64,000 bases of DNA from Candidatus Woesearchaeota archaeon (GCA_047602905.1 JBLKOP010000005.1:1241-65240); one strand, 5' to 3'. Positions 3,574-49,676 are shown, counted from the stretch's first letter. Notes: generated by a model from the letters alone, not told the origin. Program-made: numbers and translations.

Positions 3574-3611
3574 ATAATGTGGAGTTTATAAAGATTATTA
3601 TTCTGTACTGG

Positions 3612-4701: not shown

Positions 4702-4736
4702 TCATTATAAAAACAGGTTTTGTGCTTAGTGGTATT

Positions 4737-7189: not shown

Positions 7190-7208
7190 CTTTTTTTCTT
7201 GATTTTTT

Positions 7209-7610: not shown

Positions 7611-7659
7611 CTACTTGTGAAGAATAATCTTTTTTAATAGGTTGCCTGTACCTAGTAGC

Positions 7660-8926: not shown

Positions 8927-8950
8927 ACTATTTGTGTTTTTGTGCTTGTT

Positions 8951-9925: not shown

Positions 9926-10027
9926 GAAAAGAACGTTTATTTATAAAGGGCGAGTTTTTCGTTTTTCGCGAAACCTTTAAATAGTTATCAATAGAAAATT
10001 ATTGTAGTTCACCACAGGTAGAAACAC

Positions 10028-10930
10028 ATGAACAACAAAGGAATCATGGGTATTGGTACCCTCATCATTTTCATCGCAACTATTCTTGTCGCTGCTGTCG
10101 CTGCTGGAGTAATTATTTCTACAAGCGGAGTTCTTCAGCAACAGTCTCTTCTTATTGCTGATCAAAGCCAGCAACGCCTCGTAAACGGTATACAAATCAC
10201 TCATGTGTTTATGGAGGGTGATTTAGCGCAAAAAACTGCTAATAATATTGAGATTCTTGCTCGTCCCGAGCCTGCTAGTGGACCAATTAATTTTAAGACG
10301 ACGAGTTTGTCGTTCTTCACAAATACTGCTGCGTATTCCGCGACGCTTTCGCACCCAGAGACTATTCAGCTTGAGTTTACTCCTAGTGTTCCTATTACTA
10401 CTGATTTCGTTGCGTTTGGCGATATTGATGGGGATGGGGTCTCTGATGAGATTCGTCTCGTCACAGGAGCGGGTAATGACTTCTTAGAAGTTAATGTGAG
10501 TTCTTTAGGGGTTTCTGAGCTTCTCCCGCTAGGATATGACACCTCAACTACGGGTATGAATGTTACTCGTGAGGATATTCCTATTCGTGTAAACGGCACA
10601 GTTGCTGGGTATATTCACTTATCTGGCGTTCAGGGTACTTCTGGTCAAATCGCTGCTGGTACGCTTACCGTTACTGATGAGATTCGTGGTGAGTGTACGT
10701 TTGCTAAGCTTCGTCCGGATACACGGTATTGTGTTGTTACGATGACAGGTGTTGATGATGCGTACTTGGAGTATGGCGAGACGGTCTTTATGTACTTTAA
10801 GCTTAGTCAATCTCTTAGTGAGAATGAGGAGTATGAGGTAAAGATTTTCTCTCAGGATGGTCGTAGCACGTTTGTTCTTAATCGCGTTCCTGGTGTTATT
10901 TACAAGACTCGTATGAGTGTTTTCCCGTAG
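10028..10930 (+). CDS. archaellin/type IV pilin-like protein with class III signal peptide
   Basis: MNNKG|IMGIGTLIIFIATILVAAVAAGVIISTSGVLQQQ matches the archaeal flagellin N-terminus with a prepilin peptidase site after KG. The body carries a GDIDGDGVSDE Ca-loop-like motif. A TATA-like TTTAAATA lies 45-52 nt upstream. Confidence 0.75.
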   Translation: MNNKGIMGIGTLIIFIATILVAAVAAGVIISTSGVLQQQSLLIADQSQQRLVNGIQITHVFMEGDLAQKTANNIEILARPEPASGPINFKTTSLSFFTNTAAYSATLSHPETIQLEFTPSVPITTDFVAFGDIDGDGVSDEIRLVTGAGNDFLEVNVSSLGVSELLPLGYDTSTTGMNVTREDIPIRVNGTVAGYIHLSGVQGTSGQIAAGTLTVTDEIRGECTFAKLRPDTRYCVVTMTGVDDAYLEYGETVFMYFKLSQSLSENEEYEVKIFSQDGRSTFVLNRVPGVIYKTRMSVFP

Positions 10931-11001
10931 TCGTAGCAGCATAGACTTATATACTCTTTCGCTTATTTTTACTTTACAGAAACTGGGGAGTTTCGTAGAG
11001 A

Positions 11002-11499
11002 GTGATAGAGTACCTAGAAATAGACGAAATACAGCAACTCAAAGCACTCACGAAAGAACAACGAGACGCCCTACTCATAGCTACGCAGTACGAGACAGGA
11101 TGCACCGTTTCTGAACTCATTAATATCCGTCGAGAAGACCTGCGAGAACGCCACATACACGTAGAAGACCGTCTCTGTAGAGTATCAACTACGCTTCTTG
11201 AACAATTATCTCTCTACGTAAAAACCCATGAATCCCCCTACGTGTTTCCTAGCCGACAACAAGACCGCTTAACACAAAAACGAGTACAACAAATTATTCG
11301 TAAACGACTACGAGCACTCAACAAAGACCTAGACAAAACCAGTCCTCACCTTCTGCGCTACTCCCACATAGTCCACGCAGTACAACAAAACATCCCTCTT
11401 CAAGCAATCATGCAACAAACAGGCCTAAAAGAGATGCGCCTATCACAAATAATCAGCCAGATACAAACAAGCACTGGCTATGAGGAGATGTTTACATGA
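11002..11499 (+). CDS. small tyrosine-recombinase-fold protein (catalytic-domain-like, degenerate active site)
   Basis: ETGCTVSELINIRREDL aligns to box I (A/E)TG(x)R(x)SEL, with the catalytic Arg replaced by Thr. HLLRYSHIVHAV aligns to HxLRH box II. No clear C-terminal catalytic Tyr context. Only 165 aa, GTG start, and its TGA overlaps the giant-gene ATG. Confidence 0.5.
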   Translation: MIEYLEIDEIQQLKALTKEQRDALLIATQYETGCTVSELINIRREDLRERHIHVEDRLCRVSTTLLEQLSLYVKTHESPYVFPSRQQDRLTQKRVQQIIRKRLRALNKDLDKTSPHLLRYSHIVHAVQQNIPLQAIMQQTGLKEMRLSQIISQIQTSTGYEEMFT

Positions 11500-14400
11500 A
11501 ACGACTCCTTCTACTCCTCTTAGTATTTACTCTTCTCCCAGCAGCTCTTGGAGTATCAGGAGCAGAAGTATTCATCCAAGCACCAACAACCGCTCTTCCA
11601 GGAGAAACAGTAGCTGTAAGTATAGAAGCACAAATACAAGGAGTGCGAGTAATTAGTTTTCCTCTTGAAGTAACGCTCATATACCCTGACCAAACAACAA
11701 CAACTCTTCCTATACAGCCTGACGGGCAAGGGTTGCTTACAACCACTGCGTACACGCCTTTACAAGGAGTGTATGAGTTACGAGCACAAGCAAGCTTTGC
11801 AGACACACAAGTACAAGCAACGCATGAGATACGCGTACAACCACCACCTCTACAAGCAAATATCACACGAAGTAACGACACGTTTTTCTTTAACGCAACA
11901 GAAGAATACACTTTCAACATATACCCTCTTCTTCTTCAAGCAGGACCAATAACCCAGCAAGAACCCGTCTGTACTGTTACGTGCACCTCTTGTGAGCTTG
12001 TATGCGCAGTCAACAACGCGTTTATAACAGCGCAAGGACAGTACCGATACACACAAATCCTTGCCCCAACAAGCACACAAATCCTTACCACAGGACAAAG
12101 CATAGACACACAAGAACTGTTCTTGCTACGAGAAGAAGCACTCATAGCACTCCCTAGCAAGACCTCGTTTGTCCAAGACCAAACCCTCATCACCCCAGAA
12201 GGAGTACTAGAGATACGCGTTCTTGACGAAGAAGAACTCTCTACACTGCCTGAAGCGTACAGCATCCTAGACGGGCAGTGGTATGTGCGAAGCACACAAC
12301 CACTAACTGCTCTTAACCACACAATACTTGCTGCTTGGAGCTTACAAGGAGAGCTTCTTGAGCACACAACAAACACGTTGCAAACAAGCACTGGTTTTGA
12401 AGCACGCATCCAAAGAACAGGCAGCGCGCAACTACCTGTAGTTACTCATACAGAGCACGGAGTACTCGTAAATAACCTCACCCAACTCTTACGCCTACCA
12501 GCAACAGCCACTCCTATAAGTCTTTCTCAAGAACCAGAACTTCTTGTTTCTCGTGACGAGCAAGGACACCTTGTCTACTACGCACAAGAAGACCACGTAC
12601 TCATACCAGCAAATCTTACAAACAATACCGTGCTGTACGCACGCACGTTTGAGCCAATTAAGCTACCAGTAACTAATGCTTCAAAAACAACAATTCTTAA
12701 TGAAGAATTAGAAGTTGTTCTCGCTCAAGAAGGCACTCTAACTCAATGGACTCCTCGCGTACAACCAGGAAGGTACTTTGTTCTTGCTCAACAAGAACAA
12801 CCCGCTGTACAGGTAGTGGATGTGCTTCCAGCAGGAGAACTCATTACTTCACCAAACAACAATACCTACGCCGCGCAGCCAAACACGCAACTCGTTATTA
12901 AGCGAGAAGTCCGCAACACAGACACGCAACCAAGAACCATTAACGTACAACTCACCGGGGATTCTCGAGCAGTTCTGTACGCAAACAACAAGCAACTTAC
13001 CGACACGAACCTAAATGGAGTTCTTGACACAGGAATTCTTCGTCCAGGAGAAGCAATTACTCTCTCAGCACACGTGTTCATCGCTGCACAGCAACAAGAC
13101 CAAACACTCAAGTGGACTTTCTCAACGCCACAAGCAAGCATTACTCGCTCAGATGAGATACGCATAGCCTCGGAGAGCTCATTCATACAAGTGGATGACG
13201 TGGAAGTAGCGCAAATAACTGCTTCGCAAGCAAGTATTGAGGTAGTTATTAACAACTATGACGTGCAAGAGCGTGTTGAGACGATACGACTAACCTACCA
13301 AACACGAGAAGGAGAGGACGCTGAGCAGTTTAGTGTTGCTTTACCTGCTGGTAGCAGCACGCACACCTTCACAACTCCTCCTAACACGTACCAAGTACGT
13401 GCAGAGCTTCTCGTAACAGACCAAAACCCTAGTAACGATTACCGCTTACTTCGCTTTAATGAAGAAAGCGGCTTGCTTGTTCACGTTAACGAATACCAGA
13501 ACCGCGCTCACGAAGCATTCACTGTTAAAGTACAAGCACCTCTAGGAGCGTACCAAGCATTCATACCCGCTAGTAACGGATCGTTACTGCAAGTCCCTAC
13601 AGCCACTCTTTCTCAGCAAGCAAGAACACAAGACCTCCTAGTGCAGCTTCCTCTTGAAAAAAACACTGATGTACAACTCGTACTCATACCAGGAGAAGAG
13701 CGCACGTTTAATCCGTACCTCATCCTTGATAATCGTGACGCAACGACAAAAGGAAGCTGGTTTAGTGCTAGTCAAGTACCAGGGTTTTATGGTCCAGACT
13801 ACCTAAACGACTTAAATGAGCGTAAAGGAGACAAAGAAGTAGTGTACTCTCCTGTAAGCACTGCTCGTTACGAAGTAGAGATACATCATCCAGGTGATAG
13901 TAGCTTTGCGAGTAACACACGAGTACTTCTTGGAGAAGACACCGTTCTTGTTAACCAAAAAGTTCCTTCTTCTTGGCGCTACCTTGGCCGCTACGAACTA
14001 GGAGTAGACAACCCTATTATCATAACCAACGCAGCAAGTAATGGTGTAGTGGTTGCTGACGCGTTTAGGCTTGTGCGCGTTGATCAATACGCAACAATAG
14101 CTCAAGAAAGTATTGTAACAACTGCTCGTAGAGGAATCATTTTTGATAGTCGAGGACGAGAAGTAGCTGCTCAAGTAAGTCTGCGAGAAGACGGTAGAGA
14201 CGTGCGTGCAGGGCTTCTTCCTCGCCAAGCACAAGCAAATAATCGCAATTACGAAATACTCTTTGAGTTCGAGGATGAAGCAGTAGATAACCTGCGCGTT
14301 CATAACGCAAATCCTTCAGCGATGGGTCTTGGTCTTGAGCGAGTTCCTGTTGCTAGAGCGCAACAATTCACTGCTAGAAGCGTCGTTGATAGTTTCGCAA

Positions 14401-17400
14401 TTGACCCGCAGTTTGAGAGTGACTATTCCTTTACAAGAACAGCAACTGGTCGTGAACTGCTCAAATGTACTGATTACGACTTCACAAACCAAGAGTGTCT
14501 AGGAAGTTTTGAGCACGTAATGTTCTTAACGCCAGGAGAAAAATACACCGCTACTCTTGATCCGCTAGACCCGCTTTTTGTTGAAGTAAACGATTTAACA
14601 ATCCCTCCGGTAAGCGCTGTTTGTAGCGATGATGATCCTGCGAACTGGGATCCTTCTGTGTGTCAAGGAACCTACACTAACAACCCAACTTGTGGTTCTA
14701 GTGGTGCTCGTATTCTTTGTGATGACGGAGTTGTTGAGTCACTCTCAGGTGGAAGACCAGACGTTTTAGGTGTTGATGCTCGCTACGCTGACGTAACTGT
14801 TGATCCTTCAGAGCAATGCGATAACATCTTGAGTGTTTCTCTTGAGTACCGTTGGAGCAGCCCTACTGGTAACGTAAATAATCGGCGAGTAGAAATAAGT
14901 ACTGAAGATAACCCTACGTGGACAAACCCTACTGGTTGCTCAACAAATTTCGGGCTTCAATCCTGTGACATAACAAGCTATCAGTCTTGGTCGTGCGAGG
15001 ATTTCTTTGGAGAAAACACGCAAACAAGAGCTCGCGCTTATGGATGGAGAAGCACAGGTCCAGGAAGTCACCCTACCACCGTTAACGTTGATTACCTTGT
15101 TTTCGTTGTTGATTACGAGTTTGAAGTACAGCCTTTCACCTCTGATTTCTCCTCCTATAGACAAGGAGCGTTTGCTACGTTTACTGGTGCTAATGTTTGG
15201 GGAGCAAACGAGGATGTGCGCATAAATGTTACGCGTGAAGGATCACTTATTAATCAGCTAGACGTACTTACTGACGCAGAAGGAGAGTTTAGTGTACAGT
15301 ACGAGATTGATAGCTACGCAAACACTGGTTCTTGGAGAGCGGTTGTTTGGCAACTCTCAAATAATAGTATCGTTTACGACCGTAACTTTACTGTTACTCT
15401 AAGAAACCCCTCTGTTGCTCCTGCAAGAACAGGAGGGTATTATAATCGTTCCGAAACAGCTACGTTTATTGGTTCTCAGTGGGCAAACAACGCAACAGTT
15501 CTTGTTACAGCAACTGATCCAGAAAGTAACGAGTTTGTTCTTGACGAAATAAACACCACCACTTCTTCTACTGGACAAATCAGTTATAACTGGTCTGTTC
15601 CTGCTGACCTTAGCTTACTTACTGGTCCTTACACGTTTACGTTTGTTGAAGAAGACAATTCTTCTTTTACTCGACAAACACAAGCACAGATAGTTATTCT
15701 TCCTACTTCTGCTACTCGTTGGGACTCCGTTGACTTGCTTAGCGAAATCTATGCTCTTGACGGAACAGAAGCGGGTGTTACGTACACTGGAAACACTGAT
15801 GGGCGGTTTCTTAACTTAACGTTTCCTGAAACGTTTCCTGAAGACATAGAACTCAACCGTTTTGACTTCGTCTTCTTTTATCGTGAAAGCTCAGGAGCTA
15901 CAGGCCATCACATTCAGTGGTGGGATGGTGCTTCTTGGAGTACTATTTGTACTCCTCCAACAAGCACTTCTCAAACAAATTATACGTGCAGCTTGCTTGG
16001 AGAAGTAGCTAGTGATCCTTCTTTAGCAAACAACGTACAAATTCGTCTTACTGATAACGACGCAACAAGTGGAGGAGCAGGAACTGTTCACACGTACTAC
16101 GTTGACATAGCGTTTTTAGATGTTAACTTCACGTTTCCTCGACCACTAGTTGATTTGCTTTCTCCTGCGAACAACTCTTGGTTTAACTCTACTCAGCACG
16201 AACTCTTTTTTAACGCTTCTAATGAGATGTTTGATATTAGTGAGTGTCGTCTCTATGTTAACGAAGCTCTTGAGTACACAAACGATTCGTTTACTAACCC
16301 AGGAACTGATAGCTATACGCACACCTTCTCTGAAGGAGTGAATACGTGGCGCGCTGAGTGTACAGATGATTCTGCAAGACAACTCGTAGGTGAGTCTGAA
16401 ACAAGAGATATCATCATTGACTTAACGCCTCCCTCAACAACTATTAGCACTCCCACGAATAATTCTTGGTTTAACACTAGCACTCCTAGTATTAATTTCA
16501 CGCTCACTGATAACTTAGCTAACCCAGTTAATTGGAGCGTGTACGTAAATAACTCCCTTGATAACTCAGGTGTAGCTACCAACAACACCGCTTTTACTCA
16601 TACACTTAGTTCTCTTGCTGATGGGTACTACGAAGTTGTTGTTGAGGCTTGGGATCCTGCGTTTAACTACGCAGTAAATGAGTCAATTAACTTGTACGTG
16701 GATACTACTGCTCCCGTTGTTACCTTAAACGACCCTGTTGATACGTTTAATACTTCTTCTACGAGCGTGGAGTTTTCTTGGACGCCAACAGATAACCTCG
16801 CACCAACCCTAAGTTGTGATTTGTTTGTTGATGACGTCTCACAAGGAACGTTTGCAACCCAAAACGGTGTTCAGAACCAAACAACGATTCCTGGTTTTAG
16901 TGACGGAGTCTATAACTGGAGTGTTCTTTGCACAGACATAGCAGGTAACAGCGCTCTTAGTGAAGTTCGCGAATTCACAGTAGACACCACTCCTCCTGTA
17001 GTGCTCTTAGAAGCTCCTCTTAACGAGACGGTCTTTGAGGATACAAGAAACATCCAGCTAGACTACAACGTAACAGACAACTTACTTCCTGTTACTGAGT
17101 GCCGCCTATACATAGATGATGAACTTAACCAAACAAACACTACGATAACGCAGTCAGTTACGCAAAGCTTCTTCTTAACAAACCTTGACCTTGGCGTGTA
17201 CGCGTGGAATGTTGAGTGCGTAGACTTAGTAGGTAACGCAGATAATAGTTCTCAGCAAGAGTTCGAAATCAACCTTACTATGTTTAGTACCTCTCCAGCT
17301 AATGGTTTTGTTGTTGATAGAGATGGCGGAGGAGCTGCTCCTGAATCAATAACGTTTGTAGCTAACGCGAGTGATGAAGAAGCAGGTACCCTTGTTTCTT

Positions 17401-20400
17401 TCTATGCTAGCTTGCTTGAACCAGTCGTTGCTGGCCAAGAAAACCTTCTTTTAGGAACGAACACAACTACTAGTAGCGGGGTTGCTGAGTTCACGTTCAC
17501 ACCAGATAATTCTTACTTTGCAGGAAATTATTCTTGGTTTGCTGCTGCTAATCGCTACTACAACGACACCTCTAATGACTTCATTATTTTAGGAACGCCA
17601 ACTATCTCGTATCAAGACGTGCTTTTTGATCCTAACAACGAGTACAACACCAGCCAGCTTGTTCGCCTAAACGCGACAGTAACGAGTAGTCCAGAATCCG
17701 CTTCTCAACTACAAACCTTGTATGGGTTGTTTGTTAACGCAACACTCACGCAACCAGATAGCACGCAGCACTACGTACCCCTTACCGGAGCAGGCAACCT
17801 CTCAGGAACCTACGCTCTTGCTAGCGACGCACAAATTGGTTTGTGGAGTGCTTTACTAAATACCTCGGCTAGTTGGATGTACCCAAACACTACTTCTCTT
17901 CTCTCAAGAACGTTTACTGTCAAGGGGTTTGCGCACACAATAAGTCCTCCTAACGGAACAGTTGTTGATCGCGACGCAGCAGGTATGGATCCAGAAACTC
18001 TTTCTTTAGTAGTGCAGATTCCTGGAGCGACTGCTGGAGAAACCATTAATTTCACCGCAGACCTCACAGACCCTGCTTTCTCAGGAGAGCAAGGCCTTCT
18101 TCTTGGCACTAACACCACAAACGCTACTGGTCACGCAACGCTTAGCTTCACTCCAACAAGTAGTTTTTACGCGGGTAACTACACGTGGTACGCGGTTAGT
18201 AACGTAAGTTATGTAGGAAACACATCCACTCTTCTTATTAAAGGAGGAGCTCAGCTTGCGCGAGCAAACGTTTCTGAAGAGCCTGCTAGTGAGTACAACC
18301 AGTCAGATACTGTGCAGCTACGCTTTAATATTACGAGCGTAAAAGAAACTCAAGAAGAGCTAGGAATAAATTATTCTTTAGTAACTAACGCTACTCTTCA
18401 ACCAAACACGTCTAGTACTCCTACGTATATCCCAACGTTATCCTTTGATGGTTCTAGCTGGGTGGGAAGCCAAGCTATCGGCCTTACAGACCCTGTTGGT
18501 GTGTGGAGAGTAGTTGCTAATACGAGTGGATTATTTACGTACCAGAACCAAAGTGTTGAGTACTTCTTTACTGTTTTTGGACTAACAAACCTCACAGTAG
18601 ATACTTTTGGTGCTCGCGTGTATGAGCCAGTTACCTTCACAGCGAACTATTCAGACACACTTAACCAACCAATTAATTACTCTCAAACTCTGTGTGAGAT
18701 TCGCTTTGACATCCTTGGAGGATACACCTCGTATGAGAATATGAGTTATGATTCTTCTTCTGGCCTCTTCTGGTTTAGTAGACGCTTTAATGAGACGTAC
18801 ACCGACGCGGAGTATAACATTGCGTGTAACGACCCTCTCTACGAGTTTCAAAACGTTACTGACACATTTACTATTAACAGAACTTTCGCTGATGTACTTA
18901 CTGTTCCTGGCCAAGTAGTTGATAGAGACGCAGCTGGTATTGACTCAGAAACGCTCTTACTTGAAGCAAGTATTGTTGAAGCTCCAGAAGGAGTAAGTAT
19001 AGAGTTTTACACAAACCTTACTGATCCTGTTCTTGGACAAACAGAGGTGTTCTTAGGAGCTAACACTACTGATGCTTCTGGAGTTGCGGTGTATTTGTGG
19101 AACCCTGACGGTACTATTCGTGCAGGAAACCACACGCTCTACGCGAACGCTACTTACGCGGATACAAGAAACGTTTCTGACGCACAAGTATTTGCTGCTC
19201 TTCAATCCGTGTTCACAAACCCTGTAAGTAATCCTGATGCGAACTACACCCAGAACCAAACAGTAACTTTGCACGCTAACGCAACAACAGTGGGTGTGGA
19301 GACTTCTGATCAGCTAAACACGAGCTATGCTCTTAGCTACACAGCATACTTGACAAGCGTGAACGGTCAGGACAGTTCAGCACTTGCGTTTATTAATCCT
19401 CTCTGGCAAGCAAGCTACACTCTTCTTGACCTTGCTGGTGTTGGTGTGTGGAACGTAAGTATAAACGCTTCAGCAAATTATCACTACCCTGATTCAAGTA
19501 CCAAAAACTTTGACGTCTTTGGGTACATGAACGTTACTCATTCATCAATAACTCCTACTGATCACTTCGTGTATGGTTCAGCAGCGCAGACTTGTGTTGT
19601 TCAGGATCAGCACACAGCAGTGCCTGTTGAGGATGCGCAAGTCTTTTTCTACCGAAACGCTACGTTGCTTGGAAGTAACACGACAAACAGCACTGGTCAT
19701 GCTCAGTTTACTTTCCAAACAAATTCTAGCGGCGTCTTTGATGTGTTGTGTGAAGTTGAGGACCAGCTAGGAATCTATTATTTCGCTGGGCAAGCACCTA
19801 ACAGCACTGATTCCTTAACGGTTCTTCCTTTCCCTATCACGCCGATAAGTCCTGCTAATGACACGCTTGTTGATCGGGATGAGACCAACGTTTCTGTGCC
19901 TAACACTCTTGAGCTTGTTGTTGAGGTTCCTAGTTACGTTCCTGACGGCGTATCTATTAATTTCTATAGTAACCTCACAGACCCTCTTAGTGAATCAGCT
20001 GTCTTGCTTGGAAGTAACACGACTAGTTCAGGAACTGCTCGCCTAAACTACAACCCAGCAACTGCTTCCTATGCAGGGCTTCACGAGTGGTACGCGACAA
20101 ACCCTGACGCTACTGTGAATGGAACACGAACGTATGAGAGTATTATGAGTTCAGAAATCGTCTTTACAAACACAACACAAAACCCTAACCTAAACTATAC
20201 TCAGAACGAATCAGTAACTCTGCAAGCAAACCTTACCAGTCTTGGTCCTGAGACGAGAACAGAATTAGCTACGAATTACTCTTCATTACTTAACTTCACC
20301 CTTACTAATCAGAATGGACAAACCATCAGTGTTGCTTTTTACTTTGATCCTCTCTGGCAATCCTCATACACTCTTCTTGACCTTGCTGGTGTTGGTGTGT

Positions 20401-23400
20401 GGAATGTGACTGCAAGTAGCGTTGGTGATTATCAGTTTGACGCAGTTTCTTCTCTAAGAAACTTTACTGTTTATGGTTACATGAACCTCACACAAGCAGT
20501 TCTTGATGCCTCAAGTACTCACGTATACGGCTTGACTACACAAACCTGTACTGTGCAAGACCAGCACACAAATGTCGTTGTTGAGGATGCGCAAGTCTTT
20601 TTCTACCGAAACGCTACTCTTTTAGGTTCTAACACGACAAACGTTTCTGGACAAGCAAGCTTTATTTTCCAAACAAACAACACAGGCGTTTACGATATTT
20701 CTTGTGAAGTAGAGGACCAGCTAGGAATCTATTACTACGCAGGTGACGCTCCTACCGCTACAAACACGCTTACCATAACTCCTTTCCCAATAACACCTAT
20801 AAGTCCCTTAAACGACACCCTTGTTGATCGGGATGAAACTAACGTTTCTGTGCCTAATACTATTGAGTTAGTTGTTCAAGTTCCTAGTTACGTTCCTGAC
20901 GCAGTAACGATTAATTTTAGTAGCTCACTTATTAATCCACTCACCCAAGCACCCACTCTTCTTGGTGCTAACACGACGAGTTCAGGTACTGCTCGCCTAA
21001 ACTACAACCCACAGTCTACTTCTTACGCTGGTTTGTACGTGTGGAACGCTTCCTCAACTAACGGGTTTAGTAACGGTTCACGAACGTATCAATCAATAGG
21101 AACAACAAACACTTCTTTCTTTGATGAAACCCTCTTTCCAGGATTAGTGTATGAACAAAACGATTCAGTAACTCTGCAAGCAAACCTTACGAGTCTTGGT
21201 CCTGAGACGAGAACAGAATTAGCTACGAATTACTCCTCTCTACTCAATTTCACCCTTAGTAGCATAAACGGGGTTAATACGAGCGTAGCAACGTACAACA
21301 ACCCTTTCTGGCAATCCTCCTACTCTCTTCTTGACCTTGCTGGTGTTGGTGTGTGGAACGTAACAGCAACTGCTCAAACAAACTACTTCTTTAACTCTCT
21401 TAGTGAGCAAAGAAACTTTACTGTCTATGGGTTTATGAACCTCTCACAAACGTCTCCAAGCAACCCGCAAGCCTACGAGTTTGTTCCTCACACACAAACC
21501 TGTACTGTACAAGACCAGCACACAGCAGTACCTGTTATGGACGCACAAGTATTTTTTTATCGAAACGCTACGTTCTTAGGAAGTAACACAACAAACAGTT
21601 CTGGACAAGCAAGCGTTACGTTTGCAACAAACACGAGCGGAACTTATAACTTGTTGTGTGAAGTACAAGACCAGCTAGGAATCTACTACTACGCAGGAGA
21701 CGAACCATCCCAAACAACTACGCTTACTGTCGAGCCGTTCTTAGTAACACCAACTAATCCTATAAACGACACTTTAGTTGATAGAGACGGTTTCTTAGTA
21801 ACGCCAAACACCATTACGCTTAACGTGAGTGTCGTTGAAGAAATCCCTGCGGGAATAACGATTTATTTCTACGCAAACCTCACCAACCCATCCATAGCAG
21901 GCCAAGAAGAGCTCCTGCTAGGAACTAACACCACAACAAGTAATAACTGGGCTGCGCTAACGTACAACCCTAACAGCACTACGTATCTTGGAGAATACGT
22001 TTGGTGGGCTCAAGGAGGAGCGAGAGGAGCAAACGGTACACGAACCTTTACGCAACTAGGCTCTATGAACGTCACGTTTGCAAACAGCACGATAAACCCA
22101 GACGCTGAGTACGACAAACCAATCAACGTCACTATAGACGCTCTTTTGCAGAGTTACGGCCCTGAAACGAACACGCAATTATCTTCTTTGTACGCAGCAG
22201 CCACGAACAACACGTTCGTCATCCCTAACGGAACTAACCAAACAATCTCTCTTATGTACAACACCGTTAATTGGAGTGGCGAGTACGAGATACAAACGCC
22301 TGATACGAGAGGGTGGTGGTTTGCGCAACTAAACGCAACAGCAAACTACTTCGCTCTCGTGGACGCAGCAAGCAGAAGCTTCTTTGTAAATAACTTCCCA
22401 CCAACGCACACAACACCAATTCTTAACGCGAGTGACCACCCACAAAACTACACGACAGCAAACCTCACGGTTCATCCACAAAACGTCTTTGACGCAGAAG
22501 GAGACTTTGTCACGAACATGACTGATTGGAGAATAGCTAATCAGAGCGTCGCCGTACTCAACCTTCCTTTCCTGAGCAAAACAAATAGCACAGCAGCAGG
22601 TGCTGTTCGTGACTACACCACTTATGAGCACAACGCAACACTAGACTCAAGTGGAGTAAACCCTACGCCTACATACATAGATTCGTGTATCGTTGGTGGG
22701 TGTTACTTCTTTGATAACAACGAGTACATAGACACAACACTAACTCTTAACCCTGCAAGTACGAGCTTTACAATTAGTCTTTGGGCTCGCGTAGAAAGCC
22801 TTCCAAGCACGCTAGGAAGCAGCGTTCCTATCGTTCAGCAAGAAGACGGTACAGGAGTGGGAAGAACACTTGTAGGCCTAAGTAACAACGATGATGGTTG
22901 GTATAGCTTCTATGGAGGCGTGTTTCAGGATAGCGGAGTAGTACCTGCACTAAGTCAGTGGTATCACGTAGTGTACACGTACGATTTACCTTCAGAAACC
23001 CTTACGTTTTACATAGACGCAAATGATATTTACAGCGACCAAGCAGACCCAGAAGTAGCTGATGGTATCTGGACGCTAGCAAGACATAAGAGCGGAGCGA
23101 ATTACTATCACGGATACCTTGATCACGTACTCGTACTTGATAGAGCACTAAGTCAAGAACAAATCGCTCAGATACGCGAGGACGGACTAGCAGGAAAACC
23201 ACCAACGACCATCGTCTCAGAAGAAACAAATAAAGAAGAGGTGTGGAGCGCGTGCCTTACTCCTAATGACGGCCTTGATGACGCAGTTACTCTGTGCAGC
23301 AATGAAGTACGAATCAGAGGACTTCTAGAAGCAATCAACCCAGCTAATGACACAGTAGTTGATAGAGACGCTACAGGGCAAGGAAACGAGACTATCAACC

Positions 23401-24602
23401 TCACTGCATCAACGTTTGGTGACGCAGGAATTAACGTAAGCTTCTTTGCAGACTTAACAGACCCTCTTTACGCAGGACAAAACAATCTTCTTGTAGGATA
23501 CGCAGTTAGTAACGCAACAGGTTTTGCAACCCTCTCTTATAACCCAAACAGTTCAATTTATGCAGGTAACTATACTTGGCGCCCAGAGGAGACAAATAGT
23601 ACTACACTTAATAACAGAACCTATCTTGTTTATGGAAGTCTGCAAGCAAGTTACAACAGTACCGCTCACCCAAACAGCACGTATAACCAAACACAAACAG
23701 CGCTCTTTACACTTAACCTTACTTCTCCAGGTCCAGAAACGCCTCTTGATATTAACAACACACAGGACTTCCTCTTCGAGCAAATACTCACTCTTCCTAA
23801 CGCTACAAACGCCACGCTAACAACTACTTTTACTAATCCACACCACACAAGCAACTATACCTTTAGCGCCACAGAAACCGTTGGTGTGTGGAATACGAGC
23901 GTGTTTGCAAGCGCTCGTTTCTTCTACTCTTTAGAAGAACAACTGCGTACCTTCACGCTACGAGGAGTAAGCACTCTGGAGGTCTTTGACGAGCAAGACA
24001 TTATTCCACGAACAGTCTGGACTGGTGAAGAAGTGCTGCACTTTGCTAACTGGACGCATCTAGACGCTACTCCTGTAGATACAGGTACGTGTACATTAAC
24101 TCTTTGGAATAACACGCAGATACCGATGAGTTATAACTCCTCAAACGAGTTATGGGTTGCGAATCACAGCTATGAGTTCGCAGGGATATTCCGTTACAAC
24201 GCTACGTGTACAAGACCGTTTTACTACGACGTTTTCGACAACAATAACATCAGCATAGCAACGAACGTGAGCTTAGTAGCTAACTACTCCTCACAAGTCC
24301 TTAGCGATGCTCTACGAGAAGTAACGCTAAGGGTAACAAACCTTCGCGGGCACGTAGAAGGAAACGTAACGCTGTACACAGTACTTCACCCCTCACTAAC
24401 ACCAAGCTACAACACAGCTCCTACCGCTACACAAAGCATTACTGGAGAGTACGCAGGAGAAATTCTTGAGTGGTACTTTGCTAACATCACTGGCTTTGCA
24501 ACTCAAGAAATTGTCTTTAACGTAACAGGAGCAGGAAACTATCAAAACGACTTTGTTATTGGTGTGCGCACGCCGCCGGTAAGCGGGGAGGTGTTTGGAT
24601 GA
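11496..24602 (+). CDS. giant secreted surface protein (4368 aa) with Ig-like, prealbumin-like and LamG-like domains
   Basis: - Uninterrupted 13.1-kb ORF.
- N-terminal signal peptide MKRLLLLLLVFTLLPAALGVSGA.
- Four ~95-aa Ig-like repeats ending in D(L/T)T(P/A)P(x)(V/T) at nt ~16140-17280.
- Seven copies of a P.N.T.VDRD...LTDP...LLG.NTT..G.A.L.(F/Y).P....YAGxYxW module.
- LamG/concanavalin-like region at nt ~22600-23200 (ISLWARVE...WYHVVYTYD...FYIDAN...GYLDHVLVLDRALSQEQI).
- Cys-rich region at nt ~14600-15060.
- N-x-S/T sequons every few residues over most of the length. Confidence 0.9.
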   Translation: MKRLLLLLLVFTLLPAALGVSGAEVFIQAPTTALPGETVAVSIEAQIQGVRVISFPLEVTLIYPDQTTTTLPIQPDGQGLLTTTAYTPLQGVYELRAQASFADTQVQATHEIRVQPPPLQANITRSNDTFFFNATEEYTFNIYPLLLQAGPITQQEPVCTVTCTSCELVCAVNNAFITAQGQYRYTQILAPTSTQILTTGQSIDTQELFLLREEALIALPSKTSFVQDQTLITPEGVLEIRVLDEEELSTLPEAYSILDGQWYVRSTQPLTALNHTILAAWSLQGELLEHTTNTLQTSTGFEARIQRTGSAQLPVVTHTEHGVLVNNLTQLLRLPATATPISLSQEPELLVSRDEQGHLVYYAQEDHVLIPANLTNNTVLYARTFEPIKLPVTNASKTTILNEELEVVLAQEGTLTQWTPRVQPGRYFVLAQQEQPAVQVVDVLPAGELITSPNNNTYAAQPNTQLVIKREVRNTDTQPRTINVQLTGDSRAVLYANNKQLTDTNLNGVLDTGILRPGEAITLSAHVFIAAQQQDQTLKWTFSTPQASITRSDEIRIASESSFIQVDDVEVAQITASQASIEVVINNYDVQERVETIRLTYQTREGEDAEQFSVALPAGSSTHTFTTPPNTYQVRAELLVTDQNPSNDYRLLRFNEESGLLVHVNEYQNRAHEAFTVKVQAPLGAYQAFIPASNGSLLQVPTATLSQQARTQDLLVQLPLEKNTDVQLVLIPGEERTFNPYLILDNRDATTKGSWFSASQVPGFYGPDYLNDLNERKGDKEVVYSPVSTARYEVEIHHPGDSSFASNTRVLLGEDTVLVNQKVPSSWRYLGRYELGVDNPIIITNAASNGVVVADAFRLVRVDQYATIAQESIVTTARRGIIFDSRGREVAAQVSLREDGRDVRAGLLPRQAQANNRNYEILFEFEDEAVDNLRVHNANPSAMGLGLERVPVARAQQFTARSVVDSFAIDPQFESDYSFTRTATGRELLKCTDYDFTNQECLGSFEHVMFLTPGEKYTATLDPLDPLFVEVNDLTIPPVSAVCSDDDPANWDPSVCQGTYTNNPTCGSSGARILCDDGVVESLSGGRPDVLGVDARYADVTVDPSEQCDNILSVSLEYRWSSPTGNVNNRRVEISTEDNPTWTNPTGCSTNFGLQSCDITSYQSWSCEDFFGENTQTRARAYGWRSTGPGSHPTTVNVDYLVFVVDYEFEVQPFTSDFSSYRQGAFATFTGANVWGANEDVRINVTREGSLINQLDVLTDAEGEFSVQYEIDSYANTGSWRAVVWQLSNNSIVYDRNFTVTLRNPSVAPARTGGYYNRSETATFIGSQWANNATVLVTATDPESNEFVLDEINTTTSSTGQISYNWSVPADLSLLTGPYTFTFVEEDNSSFTRQTQAQIVILPTSATRWDSVDLLSEIYALDGTEAGVTYTGNTDGRFLNLTFPETFPEDIELNRFDFVFFYRESSGATGHHIQWWDGASWSTICTPPTSTSQTNYTCSLLGEVASDPSLANNVQIRLTDNDATSGGAGTVHTYYVDIAFLDVNFTFPRPLVDLLSPANNSWFNSTQHELFFNASNEMFDISECRLYVNEALEYTNDSFTNPGTDSYTHTFSEGVNTWRAECTDDSARQLVGESETRDIIIDLTPPSTTISTPTNNSWFNTSTPSINFTLTDNLANPVNWSVYVNNSLDNSGVATNNTAFTHTLSSLADGYYEVVVEAWDPAFNYAVNESINLYVDTTAPVVTLNDPVDTFNTSSTSVEFSWTPTDNLAPTLSCDLFVDDVSQGTFATQNGVQNQTTIPGFSDGVYNWSVLCTDIAGNSALSEVREFTVDTTPPVVLLEAPLNETVFEDTRNIQLDYNVTDNLLPVTECRLYIDDELNQTNTTITQSVTQSFFLTNLDLGVYAWNVECVDLVGNADNSSQQEFEINLTMFSTSPANGFVVDRDGGGAAPESITFVANASDEEAGTLVSFYASLLEPVVAGQENLLLGTNTTTSSGVAEFTFTPDNSYFAGNYSWFAAANRYYNDTSNDFIILGTPTISYQDVLFDPNNEYNTSQLVRLNATVTSSPESASQLQTLYGLFVNATLTQPDSTQHYVPLTGAGNLSGTYALASDAQIGLWSALLNTSASWMYPNTTSLLSRTFTVKGFAHTISPPNGTVVDRDAAGMDPETLSLVVQIPGATAGETINFTADLTDPAFSGEQGLLLGTNTTNATGHATLSFTPTSSFYAGNYTWYAVSNVSYVGNTSTLLIKGGAQLARANVSEEPASEYNQSDTVQLRFNITSVKETQEELGINYSLVTNATLQPNTSSTPTYIPTLSFDGSSWVGSQAIGLTDPVGVWRVVANTSGLFTYQNQSVEYFFTVFGLTNLTVDTFGARVYEPVTFTANYSDTLNQPINYSQTLCEIRFDILGGYTSYENMSYDSSSGLFWFSRRFNETYTDAEYNIACNDPLYEFQNVTDTFTINRTFADVLTVPGQVVDRDAAGIDSETLLLEASIVEAPEGVSIEFYTNLTDPVLGQTEVFLGANTTDASGVAVYLWNPDGTIRAGNHTLYANATYADTRNVSDAQVFAALQSVFTNPVSNPDANYTQNQTVTLHANATTVGVETSDQLNTSYALSYTAYLTSVNGQDSSALAFINPLWQASYTLLDLAGVGVWNVSINASANYHYPDSSTKNFDVFGYMNVTHSSITPTDHFVYGSAAQTCVVQDQHTAVPVEDAQVFFYRNATLLGSNTTNSTGHAQFTFQTNSSGVFDVLCEVEDQLGIYYFAGQAPNSTDSLTVLPFPITPISPANDTLVDRDETNVSVPNTLELVVEVPSYVPDGVSINFYSNLTDPLSESAVLLGSNTTSSGTARLNYNPATASYAGLHEWYATNPDATVNGTRTYESIMSSEIVFTNTTQNPNLNYTQNESVTLQANLTSLGPETRTELATNYSSLLNFTLTNQNGQTISVAFYFDPLWQSSYTLLDLAGVGVWNVTASSVGDYQFDAVSSLRNFTVYGYMNLTQAVLDASSTHVYGLTTQTCTVQDQHTNVVVEDAQVFFYRNATLLGSNTTNVSGQASFIFQTNNTGVYDISCEVEDQLGIYYYAGDAPTATNTLTITPFPITPISPLNDTLVDRDETNVSVPNTIELVVQVPSYVPDAVTINFSSSLINPLTQAPTLLGANTTSSGTARLNYNPQSTSYAGLYVWNASSTNGFSNGSRTYQSIGTTNTSFFDETLFPGLVYEQNDSVTLQANLTSLGPETRTELATNYSSLLNFTLSSINGVNTSVATYNNPFWQSSYSLLDLAGVGVWNVTATAQTNYFFNSLSEQRNFTVYGFMNLSQTSPSNPQAYEFVPHTQTCTVQDQHTAVPVMDAQVFFYRNATFLGSNTTNSSGQASVTFATNTSGTYNLLCEVQDQLGIYYYAGDEPSQTTTLTVEPFLVTPTNPINDTLVDRDGFLVTPNTITLNVSVVEEIPAGITIYFYANLTNPSIAGQEELLLGTNTTTSNNWAALTYNPNSTTYLGEYVWWAQGGARGANGTRTFTQLGSMNVTFANSTINPDAEYDKPINVTIDALLQSYGPETNTQLSSLYAAATNNTFVIPNGTNQTISLMYNTVNWSGEYEIQTPDTRGWWFAQLNATANYFALVDAASRSFFVNNFPPTHTTPILNASDHPQNYTTANLTVHPQNVFDAEGDFVTNMTDWRIANQSVAVLNLPFLSKTNSTAAGAVRDYTTYEHNATLDSSGVNPTPTYIDSCIVGGCYFFDNNEYIDTTLTLNPASTSFTISLWARVESLPSTLGSSVPIVQQEDGTGVGRTLVGLSNNDDGWYSFYGGVFQDSGVVPALSQWYHVVYTYDLPSETLTFYIDANDIYSDQADPEVADGIWTLARHKSGANYYHGYLDHVLVLDRALSQEQIAQIREDGLAGKPPTTIVSEETNKEEVWSACLTPNDGLDDAVTLCSNEVRIRGLLEAINPANDTVVDRDATGQGNETINLTASTFGDAGINVSFFADLTDPLYAGQNNLLVGYAVSNATGFATLSYNPNSSIYAGNYTWRPEETNSTTLNNRTYLVYGSLQASYNSTAHPNSTYNQTQTALFTLNLTSPGPETPLDINNTQDFLFEQILTLPNATNATLTTTFTNPHHTSNYTFSATETVGVWNTSVFASARFFYSLEEQLRTFTLRGVSTLEVFDEQDIIPRTVWTGEEVLHFANWTHLDATPVDTGTCTLTLWNNTQIPMSYNSSNELWVANHSYEFAGIFRYNATCTRPFYYDVFDNNNISIATNVSLVANYSSQVLSDALREVTLRVTNLRGHVEGNVTLYTVLHPSLTPSYNTAPTATQSITGEYAGEILEWYFANITGFATQEIVFNVTGAGNYQNDFVIGVRTPPVSGEVFG
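17280..22390 (+). repeat. intragenic tandem array of ~950-bp three-domain supermodules (youngest copies 19826-20780, 20781-21732, 21733-~22390)
   Basis: Exact shared tracts:
- ACACTCTTCTTGACCTTGCTGGTGTTGGTGTGTGGAA at 19417 and 20368, with its last 34 nt (CTCTTCTTGACC...) also at 21325.
- GTTGAGGATGCGCAAGTCTTTTTCTACCGAAACGCTAC at 19626 and 20580.
- A ~70-nt tract with 2 mismatches at 20208 and 21162.
Periods are 951 and 954 nt. Confidence 0.9.
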
Positions 24603-25432
24603 GAGTGCTTGTTCTTGGTGGGCGAGGGTTTCTTGGAGAAGCACTCGTAAACAAACTTCAAGAAACACATGAGGTGCACACTCTAGATACGAGTCTAGGA
24701 GGTGAGAAGCACATACAAGCAAGTGTTCTTGACAAACAAGCATTACGACAAGCGTTTAGTGGCTTTAGTTGTGTAGTTCACTTAGTGAGTCTCTCACCTT
24801 TACGAGAGCCAAAAATTCCTTATACAACAATTCATGTGCAAGCAACTAAGAACGTCGTTTCTGCAGCCAAAGAAGCGAACGTATCGTACGTGGTGTACGT
24901 GAGCGCTCTTGGGGCAAGTACGAACGCACCTACAAGTTTTCTTCGTAGTAAAGCACGTGCAGAGCAAGTAATTTTGCAGCACCAACAAACACTCATTATT
25001 CGTCCTTCTCTTATCGTTGATGAACAAAACGAGCTCATACGCGCCCTAAAGAAACTCTCTCTGACTCGGTTATTCGTGAACCTCCCTTCGCGAGTACAGC
25101 CAGTTGTTCGTGAAGAACTCGCAGAGTTCGTTAGCAAACAACTCACGAAGAAAACTATTGGTGTAGTAGAAGTAGCTGGCTCAGAAATCCTCTCGTTAGG
25201 AGCAATTGGTAAAATCACTTATTCTTCCCTTGGGCGCGGATGCGTCCTTTTACCTTCATGGACTGCGCGCCTATCAGCGCGTATTCTCTCGAAACTCCCT
25301 GGTAGCAGAATCGGTGCTGACCAGGTGCGCAGCCTTGATATTCATAACACCTTACAAGAACCTTCTCGTGGTGTGCGACAAGTTGTTTTACCAACGAGTT
25401 TTTCTTCCTGGGCTAACAAGACGTTCTCGTAA
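24599..25432 (+). CDS. NAD(P)-binding SDR-family protein (epimerase/dehydratase or NmrA-like)
   Basis: N-terminal Rossmann motif MRVLVLGGRGFLGEALV. The ATG overlaps the giant-gene TGA (ATGA at 24599-24602). Confidence 0.65.
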   Translation: MRVLVLGGRGFLGEALVNKLQETHEVHTLDTSLGGEKHIQASVLDKQALRQAFSGFSCVVHLVSLSPLREPKIPYTTIHVQATKNVVSAAKEANVSYVVYVSALGASTNAPTSFLRSKARAEQVILQHQQTLIIRPSLIVDEQNELIRALKKLSLTRLFVNLPSRVQPVVREELAEFVSKQLTKKTIGVVEVAGSEILSLGAIGKITYSSLGRGCVLLPSWTARLSARILSKLPGSRIGADQVRSLDIHNTLQEPSRGVRQVVLPTSFSSWANKTFS

Positions 25433-49559: not shown

Positions 49560-49571
49560 AACTAGTTGAAA

Positions 49572-49592: not shown

Positions 49593-49622
49593 TGCAAGTT
49601 ATTTGTACAGAGTAATTGCTTC

Positions 49623-49632: not shown

Positions 49633-49676
49633 TTACGACCGAAAAGTATTTGTTGCATTCTTACTGTTTTTTTTAT

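Follow-up and report, generated by a model that had tools for sequence, protein, structure and literature searches.

A giant secreted-protein gene coupled to a predicted non-catalytic recombinase domain on a Woesearchaeota-like archaeal chromosome

What joins a small recombinase-like gene to the gene for a giant secreted protein, so closely that the two overlap, was the question raised by a 64,000-nt stretch of Candidatus Woesearchaeota DNA (GCA_047602905.1 JBLKOP010000005.1:1241-65240), here called the window, with positions counted from its first letter. Three plus-strand open reading frames (ORFs) follow one another there: the small gene (gene A), the giant gene and a short-chain dehydrogenase/reductase (SDR) gene. 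We found that gene A is predicted to encode a catalytically dead recombinase domain and that such a gene accompanies a large secreted protein in every lineage inspected, a pairing that probably marks a dedicated regulator of giant surface-protein genes. The coordinates of the three ORFs and their overlaps were confirmed as an initial annotation of the window had placed them:

11002-11499, plus strand: gene A, 165 aa, GTG start, pI 8.6, XerA-type catalytic (CAT) domain only
11496-24602, plus strand: giant ORF, 4,368 aa, 478 kDa, pI 4.2, 0.55% Lys, predicted secreted, sequon-rich, fibrillar adhesin-like protein
24599-25432, plus strand: SDR gene, 277 aa, pI 10.0, with a GGRGFLG motif and Pfam matches to 3Beta_HSD, Epimerase and NAD_binding_10

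Both junctions are ATGA stop/start overlaps, at 11496-11499 for gene A and the giant gene and at 24599-24602 for the giant gene and the SDR gene.

Gene A, its family and its conserved partner

The gene A product matched the Phage_integrase family (PF00589, 6.5e-13), and a profile of ten gene A orthologues searched against the PDB matched archaeal XerA (4a8e, E = 5.4e-18) and also XerD (1a0p). An AlphaFold2 (AF2) model of the protein (predicted local distance difference test score, pLDDT, 86.5; predicted template-modeling score, pTM, 0.83) matched XerA 5hxy in Foldseek with a TM-score of 0.80 and a root-mean-square deviation of 2.5 Å. The alignment covers XerA residues 104-269, or positions 94-255 of the NCBIfam XerA model, and the N-terminal core-binding (SAM-like) domain is absent; the start codon and upstream leader are conserved in relatives. 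Four of the six residues of the catalytic set R-K-H-R-[HW]-Y are replaced, the tyrosine nucleophile included:

Arg-I: Thr T35 (XerA TG-L-R-VSEL becomes ETGCTVSEL)
β-hairpin Lys: loop deleted (E55)
His-II and Arg-II: kept as H116 and R119 (PHLLRY)
His-III (LGH): Leu L142 (TGL)
Tyr nucleophile (TQIYT): Ile I151 (SQI-I-S), with Ile, Leu or Val among the orthologues

The catalytic substitutions were invariant in the ten orthologues, whose overall identity was only 50-62%, with 49 invariant columns. Because the nucleophile and three further catalytic residues are lost, the gene A product should be incapable of recombination: it is predicted to be a recombinase fold unable to carry out tyrosine-recombinase chemistry. 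The initial annotation had called it a recombinase-fold ORF, which stands as a description of the fold and not of an enzyme. Relative to XerA and XerC-XerD, gene A has the same CAT fold and keeps the HxxR motif and the DNA-contacting helices, but it lacks the core-binding domain and the Lys loop; its family has exchanged Arg-I for Thr, Ser or Lys, His/Trp-III for Leu or Ile and Tyr for Ile, Leu or Val, and the gene is fixed upstream of a surface-protein gene rather than tied to a dif site or mobile element. No paralogues were found in the window or in the relatives' loci examined, and neither a mobile-element context nor recombination sites were detected at gene A; the inverted repeats bracketing its promoter and coding sequence are all short, 71-93% complementary and at chance level.

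With the orthologue profile, an exhaustive HMMER search that covered 1.84 billion cluster representatives returned 7,136 matches at E ≤ 1e-3, of which 476 reached E ≤ 1e-10 and 43 reached E ≤ 1e-30. We surveyed the top 150 matches together with the ten orthologues, which gave 241 domains aligned to the profile; 77 of the proteins are single-domain (160-230 aa) and 82 are tandem duplications (260-390 aa). The Arg-I position is occupied by Thr, Lys or Ser in 187 domains and by Arg in 18, the His-III position by Leu or Ile in 148 and by His in 6, and the Tyr nucleophile is present in 12/241, while Arg-II is still Arg in 184/241. Arg-I and Tyr occur together in only five domains, all of them among the weakest matches. 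The family's proteins are strongly basic (median pI 9.9), and a scan of viral contigs with a broad family alignment found no relatives. Database names, where given, are 'integrase', 'XerD' or 'tyrosine-type recombinase/integrase'. Hundreds of proteins that bear these labels are thus predicted to be unable to recombine DNA, and mobile-element and integrase counts in Woesearchaeota genomes would therefore be inflated.

The nearest precedent found for a recombinase fold kept without catalysis as a sequence-specific DNA-binding and DNA-bending module is TnsF of Tn6022-like Tn7 transposons (PMC10293859), whose inactivated tyrosine-recombinase domain serves to select the DNA target. TnsF differs in being a large, multidomain protein with zinc fingers that works in transposition, whereas gene A encodes a stand-alone domain of 165 aa (tandem in some relatives) whose DNA binding is predicted. 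With gene A, an archaeal recombinase fold that has lost catalysis and is probably nucleic-acid-binding would join this bacterial case of enzyme domestication. Targeted literature searching turned up no account of an archaeal family of catalytically dead, CAT-only recombinases, nor of the coupling between a recombinase-fold gene and a giant protein that the initial annotation had taken to be new; the dead-CAT family and its conserved coupling to large secreted proteins appear to be undescribed so far.

The neighbourhood of the dead-CAT gene was inspected in five lineages (loci are designated by L numbers and family members by P numbers), and in 5/5 the gene lies directly upstream of, overlaps or is fused to a large secreted protein rich in N-x-S/T sequons. 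Within the window clade (L001, L002, L007) the order is RsmB/F on the minus strand followed by archaellin, gene A and giant on the plus strand, with an ATGA or GTGA overlap. In the L008/L009 lineage, where gene A is 38% identical, archaellin again precedes gene A, which leads through an ATGA overlap into a reading frame that begins with a signal peptide and stays open for more than 3,083 codons. In L033 the dead-CAT gene (member P0097) shares an ATGA with a giant gene of at least 2,619 codons, whose product has a signal peptide and a density of 3.5 sequons per 100 aa; on the opposite strand, divergently upstream and ending in an archaellin gene, lies a complete archaellum cluster (L033 1-7557), comprising T2SSF/ArlJ, T2SSE/ArlI, a KaiC-like ATPase (ArlH), FlaC and two archaellin-type genes, with a helix-turn-helix (HTH) regulator inside it. 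The gene of the tandem member P0074 in L034/L035 overlaps that of a 1,102-aa protein, which starts with a signal peptide and has a sequon density of 6.35 per 100 aa. Finally, a single reading frame of L031/L032 (P0139) joins the dead CAT domain to a hydrophobic segment and an Ig-like region rich in Cys and sequons; two samples yielded the identical fusion, and the gene of a further secreted protein overlaps its end. An archaellin gene stands directly upstream of the dead-CAT gene in L001, L002, L007 and L008/L009 (in the window clade the archaellin gene alone adjoins), archaellum genes are adjacent to the pair in three lineages, and relatives carry full archaellum genes (L033) and chemotaxis genes (L034) by the pair.

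Because large secreted proteins make up a small fraction of any genome, we judge the 5/5 pairing to be far beyond chance, and the P0139 fusion supplies independent 'Rosetta-stone' evidence for a functional link between the dead CAT domain and a secreted protein. Of the three-gene translationally coupled unit proposed initially, the gene A-giant pair is the part that stood; the SDR gene is specific to one clade, and archaellin is the more widely conserved neighbour.

As a separate observation, L034 also carries at 1484-6999 on the minus strand (and likewise in L035) a 193-aa HTH-type protein (Sigma70_r4/HTH_23-like) in a 4-nt overlap with a sequon-rich, cadherin/Big_13-like secreted protein of 1,645 aa, the same design with another small protein. 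A few kb separate it from the tandem dead-CAT gene and its 1,102-aa partner, and CheW, a response regulator and a methyl-accepting chemotaxis protein are encoded nearby.

Conservation extends to the nucleotides before gene A. The spacer between archaellin and gene A is 71 nt long and holds a TATA-like box and a leader, and the candidate cis-elements of the operon, the last two of which contain Shine-Dalgarno (SD)-like motifs, are as follows:

10946-10953, plus strand: TATA-like box CTTATATA, candidate operon promoter some 50 nt before the start codon, shared by the window, L001, L002 and L007
10979-10994, plus strand: perfect palindrome GAAACT-GGGG-AGTTTC with 6-bp arms and a 4-nt spacer, candidate operator or hairpin of the 5' untranslated region
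11482-11499, plus strand: SD-like GAGGAG and ATGA at the gene A/giant junction
24587-24602, plus strand: SD-like GGAGGTG and ATGA at the giant/SDR junction, kept in L004, L005 and L006

The leader ACAGAAACTGGGGAGTTTCG(T/C)AGAGAGTG (10976-11004) is essentially identical in the window, L001, L002 and L003, while the encoded proteins are only 50-60% identical. The palindrome, unique in the window, is identical in L001, L002 and L003 and differs only in its loop in L007; as RNA it would form a leader hairpin of -12.1 kcal/mol (z -2.2). In every lineage the 100 nt ahead of the dead-CAT gene contain a GAAACT/AGTTTC hexamer, with 10 occurrences vs 0.45 expected over six loci (window, L007, L008, L033, L034, L031); examples are AGTTTCGTAAT beside the TATA box in L007 and L034, AGTTTCG-N17-CGAAACT in L034, and GGGAAAC(T) in L031 and L033. 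At the gene A/giant junction GAGG, GGAGG or AAGG precedes the ATGA or GTGA overlap by 8-10 nt in L001, L002, L007 and L008, and L033 has AGGAG...ATGA. The SD-like motifs 6-10 nt ahead of both overlapping starts in the window would fit translation of the three genes from one mRNA.

Elsewhere in the window (55392-55450), upstream of a minus-strand ORF at 54906-55391, we noted a 19-nt palindrome, GTACGGAAACGTTCCGTAC, directly 3' of GAAACAATATTTAAAA, which resembles a transcription factor B recognition element (BRE) and TATA box; this palindrome also contains the GAAAC core.

The giant protein and the SDR behind it

The giant protein carries a Sec-type signal peptide and a succession of β-sandwich and carbohydrate-binding modules:

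11496-11555, plus strand: Sec-type signal peptide, residues 1-20 (MKRLLLLLLVFTLLPAALG), the sole hydrophobic segment, putatively cleaved
11556-15095, plus strand: sequon-poor head, residues 21-1200, unique, holding the Golvesin_C module and the Cys-rich region
13722-14081, plus strand: carbohydrate-binding module of Golvesin_C/xanthan-lyase C-terminal type, about residues 743-862 (Pfam 4.8e-13)
16113-17285, plus strand: four tandem Ig-like domains of ~95 aa each, residues about 1540-1930 (Big_13 6.3e-14, Big_7 7.4e-12)
17274-22430, plus strand: six super-repeats of 217-318 aa, starting at residues 1927, 2144, 2462, 2780, 3098 and 3416
22713-23168, plus strand: LamG/concanavalin-A-like lectin domain, residues 3740-3891 (Laminin_G_3, 3.6e-18 and 3.3e-20)
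23319-24599, plus strand: seventh super-repeat (residues 3942-4165) and C-terminal region (residues 4166-4368), without an anchor

A signal peptide without a C-terminal anchor had been proposed from the outset, and beyond residues 1-20 the mean Kyte-Doolittle value stays at or below 1.3 in every segment; a lipobox and a PGF/PEF-type C-terminal motif are likewise absent. Equivalent signal-peptide N-termini are present in all giant orthologues. The extreme sequon density reported earlier was also borne out, with 177 N-x-S/T sequons vs 68.4±7.0 in composition-preserving shuffles. The excess is limited to residues 1201-4368 (167 observed vs 59.8±6.5 expected), sequons in residues 1-1200 being at chance (10 vs 10.1 expected). 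Giant orthologues carry 4-6 sequons per 100 aa and the super-repeats about 5, as against 0-1.2 in the cytoplasmic proteins of the window.

The Ig-like repeats, Cys-rich region and LamG domain named in the initial annotation were all recovered, and the Golvesin_C module, which it had left unnamed, was added to them. Golvesin_C passed its gathering threshold (49.7 bits vs 31.6; profile positions 2-132 of 132) and also matched residues 906-1039 of a Paenibacillus xanthan lyase (PDB 6f2p, E = 6.9e-8), and is a putative carbohydrate-binding module. The Cys-rich region (~residues 990-1180, with 9 Cys in residues 1001-1200) is conserved in orthologues, and the head is the part of the giant conserved with a distant L033 homologue (window residues 425-866, E = 2e-32). 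MG2/FlgD-Ig-like domains lie at residues about 1200-1420, and self-comparison placed the internal Ig repeats at residues 1550, 1645, 1740 and 1834. Each super-repeat consists of two or three β-sandwich domains, and the three youngest, which have a 954-nt period, show 60-70% protein and 73-92% nucleotide identity. An AF2 model of one 318-aa unit, for which the seven internal copies served as the alignment, was all-β (pLDDT about 85 for domain 1, the third domain moderately confident), and Foldseek matches included macroglobulin (MG) domains of α2-macroglobulin as well as CD109, complement proteins and 6xi3, the tandem-repeat extender of a large adhesion protein. An identity as an α2-macroglobulin/thioester protein was considered and rejected, since the CxEQ motif is absent, the MG2 and bMG3 Pfam matches are weak and below cut-offs, and the similarity is that of β-sandwich folds. 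LamG (66.6-73.2 bits vs a cut-off of 27.6; profile positions 2-151 of 151) sits ahead of the last super-repeat. Neither Pfam nor the PDB gave a match for the C-terminus (residues 4150-4368) or for most of the N-terminal 740 aa. The conserved C-terminal GEVFG is encoded by the SD motif (GGAGGTG) and start of the next gene, and its conservation therefore probably reflects nucleotide-level constraint rather than a sorting signal.

Orthologues at 40-54% identity were found in L001, L002, L004, L005 and L007, and an exact product look-up of the 4,368-aa protein returned no record. Ten independent (Logan) assemblies are 100% identical to window positions 1923-19445, and four of the ten end exactly at 19445, a position within a segment whose sequence the three 954-nt copies have kept well conserved (19395-19480, 20346-20431 and 21300-21385, sharing a run of about 30 nt as read from the aligned copies). 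Other assemblies cover the last 1,088 codons of the giant ORF and the downstream genes. Continuity of the ORF, a point on which the initial annotation had asked for a check, is thus supported by independent assemblies on either side, while ~19445-21340, within the three repeats, is carried by the window's own contig alone; the 954-nt copy number therefore stands on that contig. The L001 and L004 orthologues show the same repeat organisation.

Taken together, the giant is probably a secreted, fibrillar adhesin-like protein in which a glycosylated β-sandwich stalk carries glycan-binding modules, and the earlier description of an adhesin-like surface protein is supported in its anatomy. It shares with fibrillar adhesins and α2-macroglobulin MG proteins a stalk of tandem MG-, Ig- or fibronectin type III-like β-sandwiches with embedded lectin or carbohydrate-binding modules, and differs from them in lacking a CxEQ thioester, bait region, thioester domain, sortase/LPXTG signal and type-1-secretion signal and in its archaeal-type sequon saturation. 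Further counterparts are the giant 'SPEARE' proteins of Nanohaloarchaeota (SVXNc_0300/BNXNv_0298) and the LamG/PKD surface proteins of DPANN archaea (PMC10266531, PMC6642349). Like the window giant, SPEARE proteins are very large, acidic and Sec-exported, contain long runs of Ig-like β-sandwiches and belong to small-genome DPANN of saline habitats, LamG lectin domains occur in surface proteins of the same organisms, and a role in cell-cell interaction has been proposed. The window giant differs in having no C-terminal transmembrane region, no VirB4/TraG-like ATPase domain (Pfam, NCBIfam) and no adjacent secretion ATPase (PMC10266531), and in its partners, which are a dead recombinase domain, an SDR and an archaellin. 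Against solved or named proteins it showed no sequence match beyond shared domain types. Other halophilic DPANN are documented to have giant Ig/LamG surface proteins (PMC10266531), of which the window giant itself is an ordinary case.

The main rival for the giant's role is structural: a component of the envelope or matrix (associated with the S-layer, forming a protective glycocalyx, or acting as a fibre by which a free-living, motile cell binds exopolysaccharide or minerals) or an archaellum-associated structure. The missing anchor, the lack of a host-specific domain, the polysaccharide-type character of the recognisable binding modules (Golvesin_C/xanthan-lyase, LamG), and the archaellum and chemotaxis genes beside the pair in relatives, with recurring archaellin adjacency, all speak for it. 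A β-sandwich stalk with lectin modules is, however, typical of adhesins, the extender 6xi3 was among the Foldseek matches, and DPANN giants with Ig and LamG domains are generally read as host-interaction proteins (PMC10266531). We consider a structural role improbable on balance, though far from negligible. The host attachment and episymbiotic lifestyle first suggested for the organism found no support here; relatives carry full archaellum and chemotaxis genes by the pair.

The third gene, read initially as a Rossmann SDR, is indeed an SDR, of an atypical NDUFA9/YbjT-like kind by its relatives, with clade-specific linkage and no recognisable character of a sugar-nucleotide enzyme. Its closest named relatives, at about 30% identity, are labelled 'complex I NDUFA9 subunit family' and 'YbjT (DUF2867)', and its best PDB matches are NDUFA9 subunits of complex I. 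With NDUFA9 (the 39-kDa complex I subunit) and YbjT it shares a GxxGxxG Rossmann fold, whole-length similarity of 28-32% and the pattern S-x-[YF]-x-R-[ST]-K; it differs in being shorter (277 vs 300-380 aa), archaeal and coupled to a secreted giant, with no complex I evident in the window. The Lys of the YxxxK motif is invariant, and the Tyr is Phe in the window protein (SFLRSK), in P0014 and in an animal NDUFA9-like sequence, whereas it is kept in other relatives; one of three orthologues of the window SDR has Phe. The gene follows the giant with an ATGA overlap and SD motif only within the window clade (L004 and L005/L006, 42-44% identical), the downstream photolyase gene is equally conserved in the loci with the SDR, and no SDR follows the secreted proteins of L034 and L031. 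The bacterial SDR homologues P0037 and P0016 lie in unrelated housekeeping contexts and do not adjoin photolyases, so that a functional tie between SDR and photolyase, as in a bacterial photo-oxidative stress operon, was unsupported.

That the SDR is a sugar-nucleotide epimerase or reductase making a component of the giant's N-glycan would account for its SD and ATGA coupling to a 177-sequon protein, kept in four loci, and for its Pfam matches to Epimerase, 3Beta_HSD, RmlD_sub_bind and Polysacc_synt_2. The whole-length relatives and best structures are, however, of NDUFA9/YbjT type, the NCBIfam sugar-enzyme models scored 15-42 bits vs cut-offs of 220-580, the catalytic Tyr is Phe in the window protein and one of three orthologues, and the L034 and L031 secreted proteins do without such a gene. 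A glycan-biosynthetic role is possible and not favoured; we rate it unlikely.

What gene A may do for the giant gene

We lean, with moderate confidence, towards a giant-adhesin operon on a Woesearchaeota-like DPANN chromosome that is equipped with a nucleic-acid-binding regulator derived from a recombinase. Three products would arise from the operon's own conserved TATA box and leader. Gene A, a small basic protein that would retain the recombinase's nucleic-acid-binding surface, would act as a locus-specific cis regulator of the giant through GAAACT/AGTTTC boxes in promoter and leader, either as an operator-binding autoregulator or as a processivity-type factor, and possibly also coordinates expression of the adjacent archaellin; tandem family members would mimic a gene A dimer. 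The giant would be exported through Sec and N-glycosylated on up to ~170 sequons along ~30 or more MG/Ig-like β-sandwich domains, while its unglycosylated head, with the polysaccharide-binding module and Cys-rich domain, and the distal LamG domain would bind glycans on another surface. The third product would be the SDR, atypical and putatively NAD(P)-binding.

For contact of DPANN archaea with other cells, giant surface proteins are the foremost candidates, and the control of their huge genes is not known to have been described; gene A offers a testable handle, being a small protein with a defined 70-bp DNA or RNA target. Bacteria provide functional analogies. UpxY proteins of Bacteroides (NusG-like antiterminators encoded by the first gene of capsule operons) and RfaH with its ops leader are locus-specific elongation factors for long surface operons, and MrpJ and PapX are fimbrial-operon regulators that repress flagella. 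Gene A resembles these in being a small, predicted nucleic-acid-binding protein in cis with a long surface unit, with a conserved leader and motility genes adjacent; it differs in its unrelated fold and its domain of life, and they are an analogy for its possible mode, not homologues.

Several points weigh against this regulator reading. Binding of gene A to DNA, RNA or the GAAACT box is a prediction, the GAAACT/AGTTTC motif was chosen post hoc from the window clade, and CGAAAC in some loci may simply be the archaeal BRE, as it clearly is at the archaellin promoter. The lineages are few, and within the window clade the housekeeping flanks RsmB/F and photolyase are equally syntenic, so that synteny there is by itself no proof of function. 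An ATGA overlap is by itself unremarkable in this window, where 5/22 same-strand neighbour pairs have one. The P0139 fusion equally fits a protein-level role at the membrane. As for the partners, the giant is probably N-glycosylated, to judge from its sequon statistics (no aglB gene lies in the 64-kb window, and AglB-dependent glycan attachment is predicted from the sequons), the giant has no recognisable cell anchor and could be released, or be structural rather than adhesive, and the link to the SDR is weak, a gene whose role this reading leaves unexplained.

A wider version, in which dead-CAT proteins are domesticated cis-regulators of giant or large surface-glycoprotein genes through GAAACT/AGTTTC boxes across the Woesearchaeota, and perhaps across DPANN, is tentative, and we think it rather doubtful as yet. 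Two modes are conceivable. Such a protein might be a locus-specific processivity or antitermination factor for genes of more than 10 kb where the terminator is a simple T-run, or an adhesion-vs-motility switch that acts also on the neighbouring archaellin/archaellum promoter.

The main rival for gene A places it at the protein level, as a cytoplasmic adaptor or chaperone for the nascent giant or its signal peptide at the membrane or Sec translocon, delivered in cis by the coupling. P0139, which joins a dead CAT domain to a hydrophobic segment and an extracellular sequon-rich region reproducibly in two samples, would suit such an adaptor, as would the constant stop-to-start overlap of gene A and giant; membrane-tethered DNA-binding regulators of the ToxR type would, however, explain the fusion equally well. 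An adaptor is also at odds with the DNA-binding catalytic-domain fold with its retained His-II and Arg-II, with the strongly basic character of the family, with the half of the family that are tandem duplications mimicking a DNA-bound dimer, and with the conserved nucleotide box that accompanies the gene. We regard it as unlikely.

Slightly less likely still is mere inherited gene order in a compact genome, with gene A and the SDR unrelated to the giant and gene A a decaying XerA-like or integrase remnant. ATGA overlaps are common in the window, RsmB/F and photolyase keep the same order in close relatives, and the nearest SDR homologues outside the clade are bacterial YbjT/NDUFA9-like genes in housekeeping contexts, all of which such an account would predict. 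Gene A is nevertheless clearly constrained (49 invariant columns in ten sequences), the catalytic-site substitutions are themselves conserved, the pairing persists where all surroundings have changed (L033, L034, L031), and the fusion P0139 exists. For the SDR alone, inherited gene order remains quite possible.

A recombinase gene beside adhesin or fimbrial genes is classically a sign of phase variation. Such variation of the adhesin, by a Fim/Mrp-type invertible promoter or by recombination of the 954-nt repeats, would have gene A be an active site-specific recombinase or work together with one; this reading is very improbable and, despite the three repeats (73-92% identical) and the kept HxxR motif, is largely refuted by the catalytic-residue test, with Arg-I, the β-hairpin Lys, His-III and Tyr all replaced, no core-binding domain, inverted repeats around the promoter at chance level only, and ten independent assemblies 100% identical across the promoter in a single orientation.

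Composition and genome context

The initial annotation had placed the three genes in an A-rich island on an otherwise T-rich plus strand. The island proved real, extending to four-fold degenerate sites, and proved not unique in the window. At such sites the plus strand is extremely T-rich and G-rich for genes of both orientations (AT skew -0.4 to -0.9), whereas the skew was +0.30 for gene A, -0.08 for the giant overall, +0.23 for its first 500 codons, -0.14 for the SDR gene and +0.41 for the large subunit of ribonucleotide reductase (RNR). Gene A and giant deviate from their flanks likewise in L001, L002, L007 and L008, at G+C contents of third codon positions from 0.2 to 0.85. The A-rich island is thus a maintained property of these genes and not of amino-acid composition alone, and a recent inversion or horizontal transfer is disfavoured as its cause, the same four-fold-site deviation being found in relatives across that range. 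Archaeal transcription terminates at T-runs, and the giant gene has 12 runs of five or more T vs 21.6±4.1 when its codons are shuffled, and its density of such runs per kb is below that of most genes on the plus strand, which lends modest, suggestive support to T-run avoidance. The exceptions to the general skew lie at 11002-14000, 21996-25432, 42349-43413, 45707-47455 and 56434-59259, and the deviant genes include a tRNA-U5-methyltransferase-like gene, the DnaG primase gene and the gene for the RNR large subunit; the RNR small-subunit gene next door is normal.

The window is core chromosome, with genes for Orc1/Cdc6, a UvrD-type helicase, an A-type ATP synthase, DnaG primase, RNR and a photolyase, the last of these downstream of the SDR gene. 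Among GTDB species representatives gene A has one named relative only, in a Candidatus Woesearchaeota metagenome-assembled genome (isolate CSSed162cmB_258, a name that presumably points to a soda-lake sediment series), and a more distant family member also carries the NCBI label Candidatus Woesearchaeota; the organism was earlier judged DPANN-like, and the sole named relative agrees.

Upstream of the operon lie an archaellin-like gene and a DUF285/PARCEL protein gene, both of which had been reported and were confirmed by Pfam and NCBIfam:

about 9969-9983, plus strand: BRE/TATA GCGAAAC-CTTTAAATA of the archaellin-like gene, its own promoter signal, separate from that of gene A
10028-10930, plus strand: archaellin-like gene, 300 aa, class III signal-peptide N-terminus (Pfam Arch_flagellin 8.5e-21)

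The archaellin-like protein also scored above the cut-off of NCBIfam arch_flag_Nterm. Relative to the Pfam archaellin model it has an insertion of ~120 aa (residues 5-281 align to 158 profile positions), and the insertion carries a calcium-binding-type motif, DIDGDGVSD (window 10400-10440, residues about 125-140), that is kept in the L008 homologue. Only the distal part of the profiles was matched by the DUF285/PARCEL-repeat surface protein (window 9-1121; Pfam 28-104, NCBIfam 300-373 of 433), which may be cut by the window start; it is acidic and Lys-poor, with 2.4 sequons per 100 aa. Low Lys contents (0.5-2.3%) and pI values of 4.1-4.6 are peculiar to the three secreted proteins, namely the giant, the DUF285/PARCEL protein and the archaellin; the cytoplasmic proteins of the window are not acidic (pI 5-10, 5-9% Lys). 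The pattern suggests adaptation restricted to the exoproteome rather than a salt-in proteome, and an alkaline saline habitat would fit it.

Elsewhere in the window, the DnaG-type primase ORF (45707-47455) shares 185 nt with an ORF of 762 aa that encodes an RNase_H_2-superfamily domain, and a LAGLIDADG endonuclease ORF (49566-50345) starts 6 nt after the latter. A second RNase_H_2/HHH_5 protein is encoded at 5804-7189, adjoining Orc1/Cdc6.

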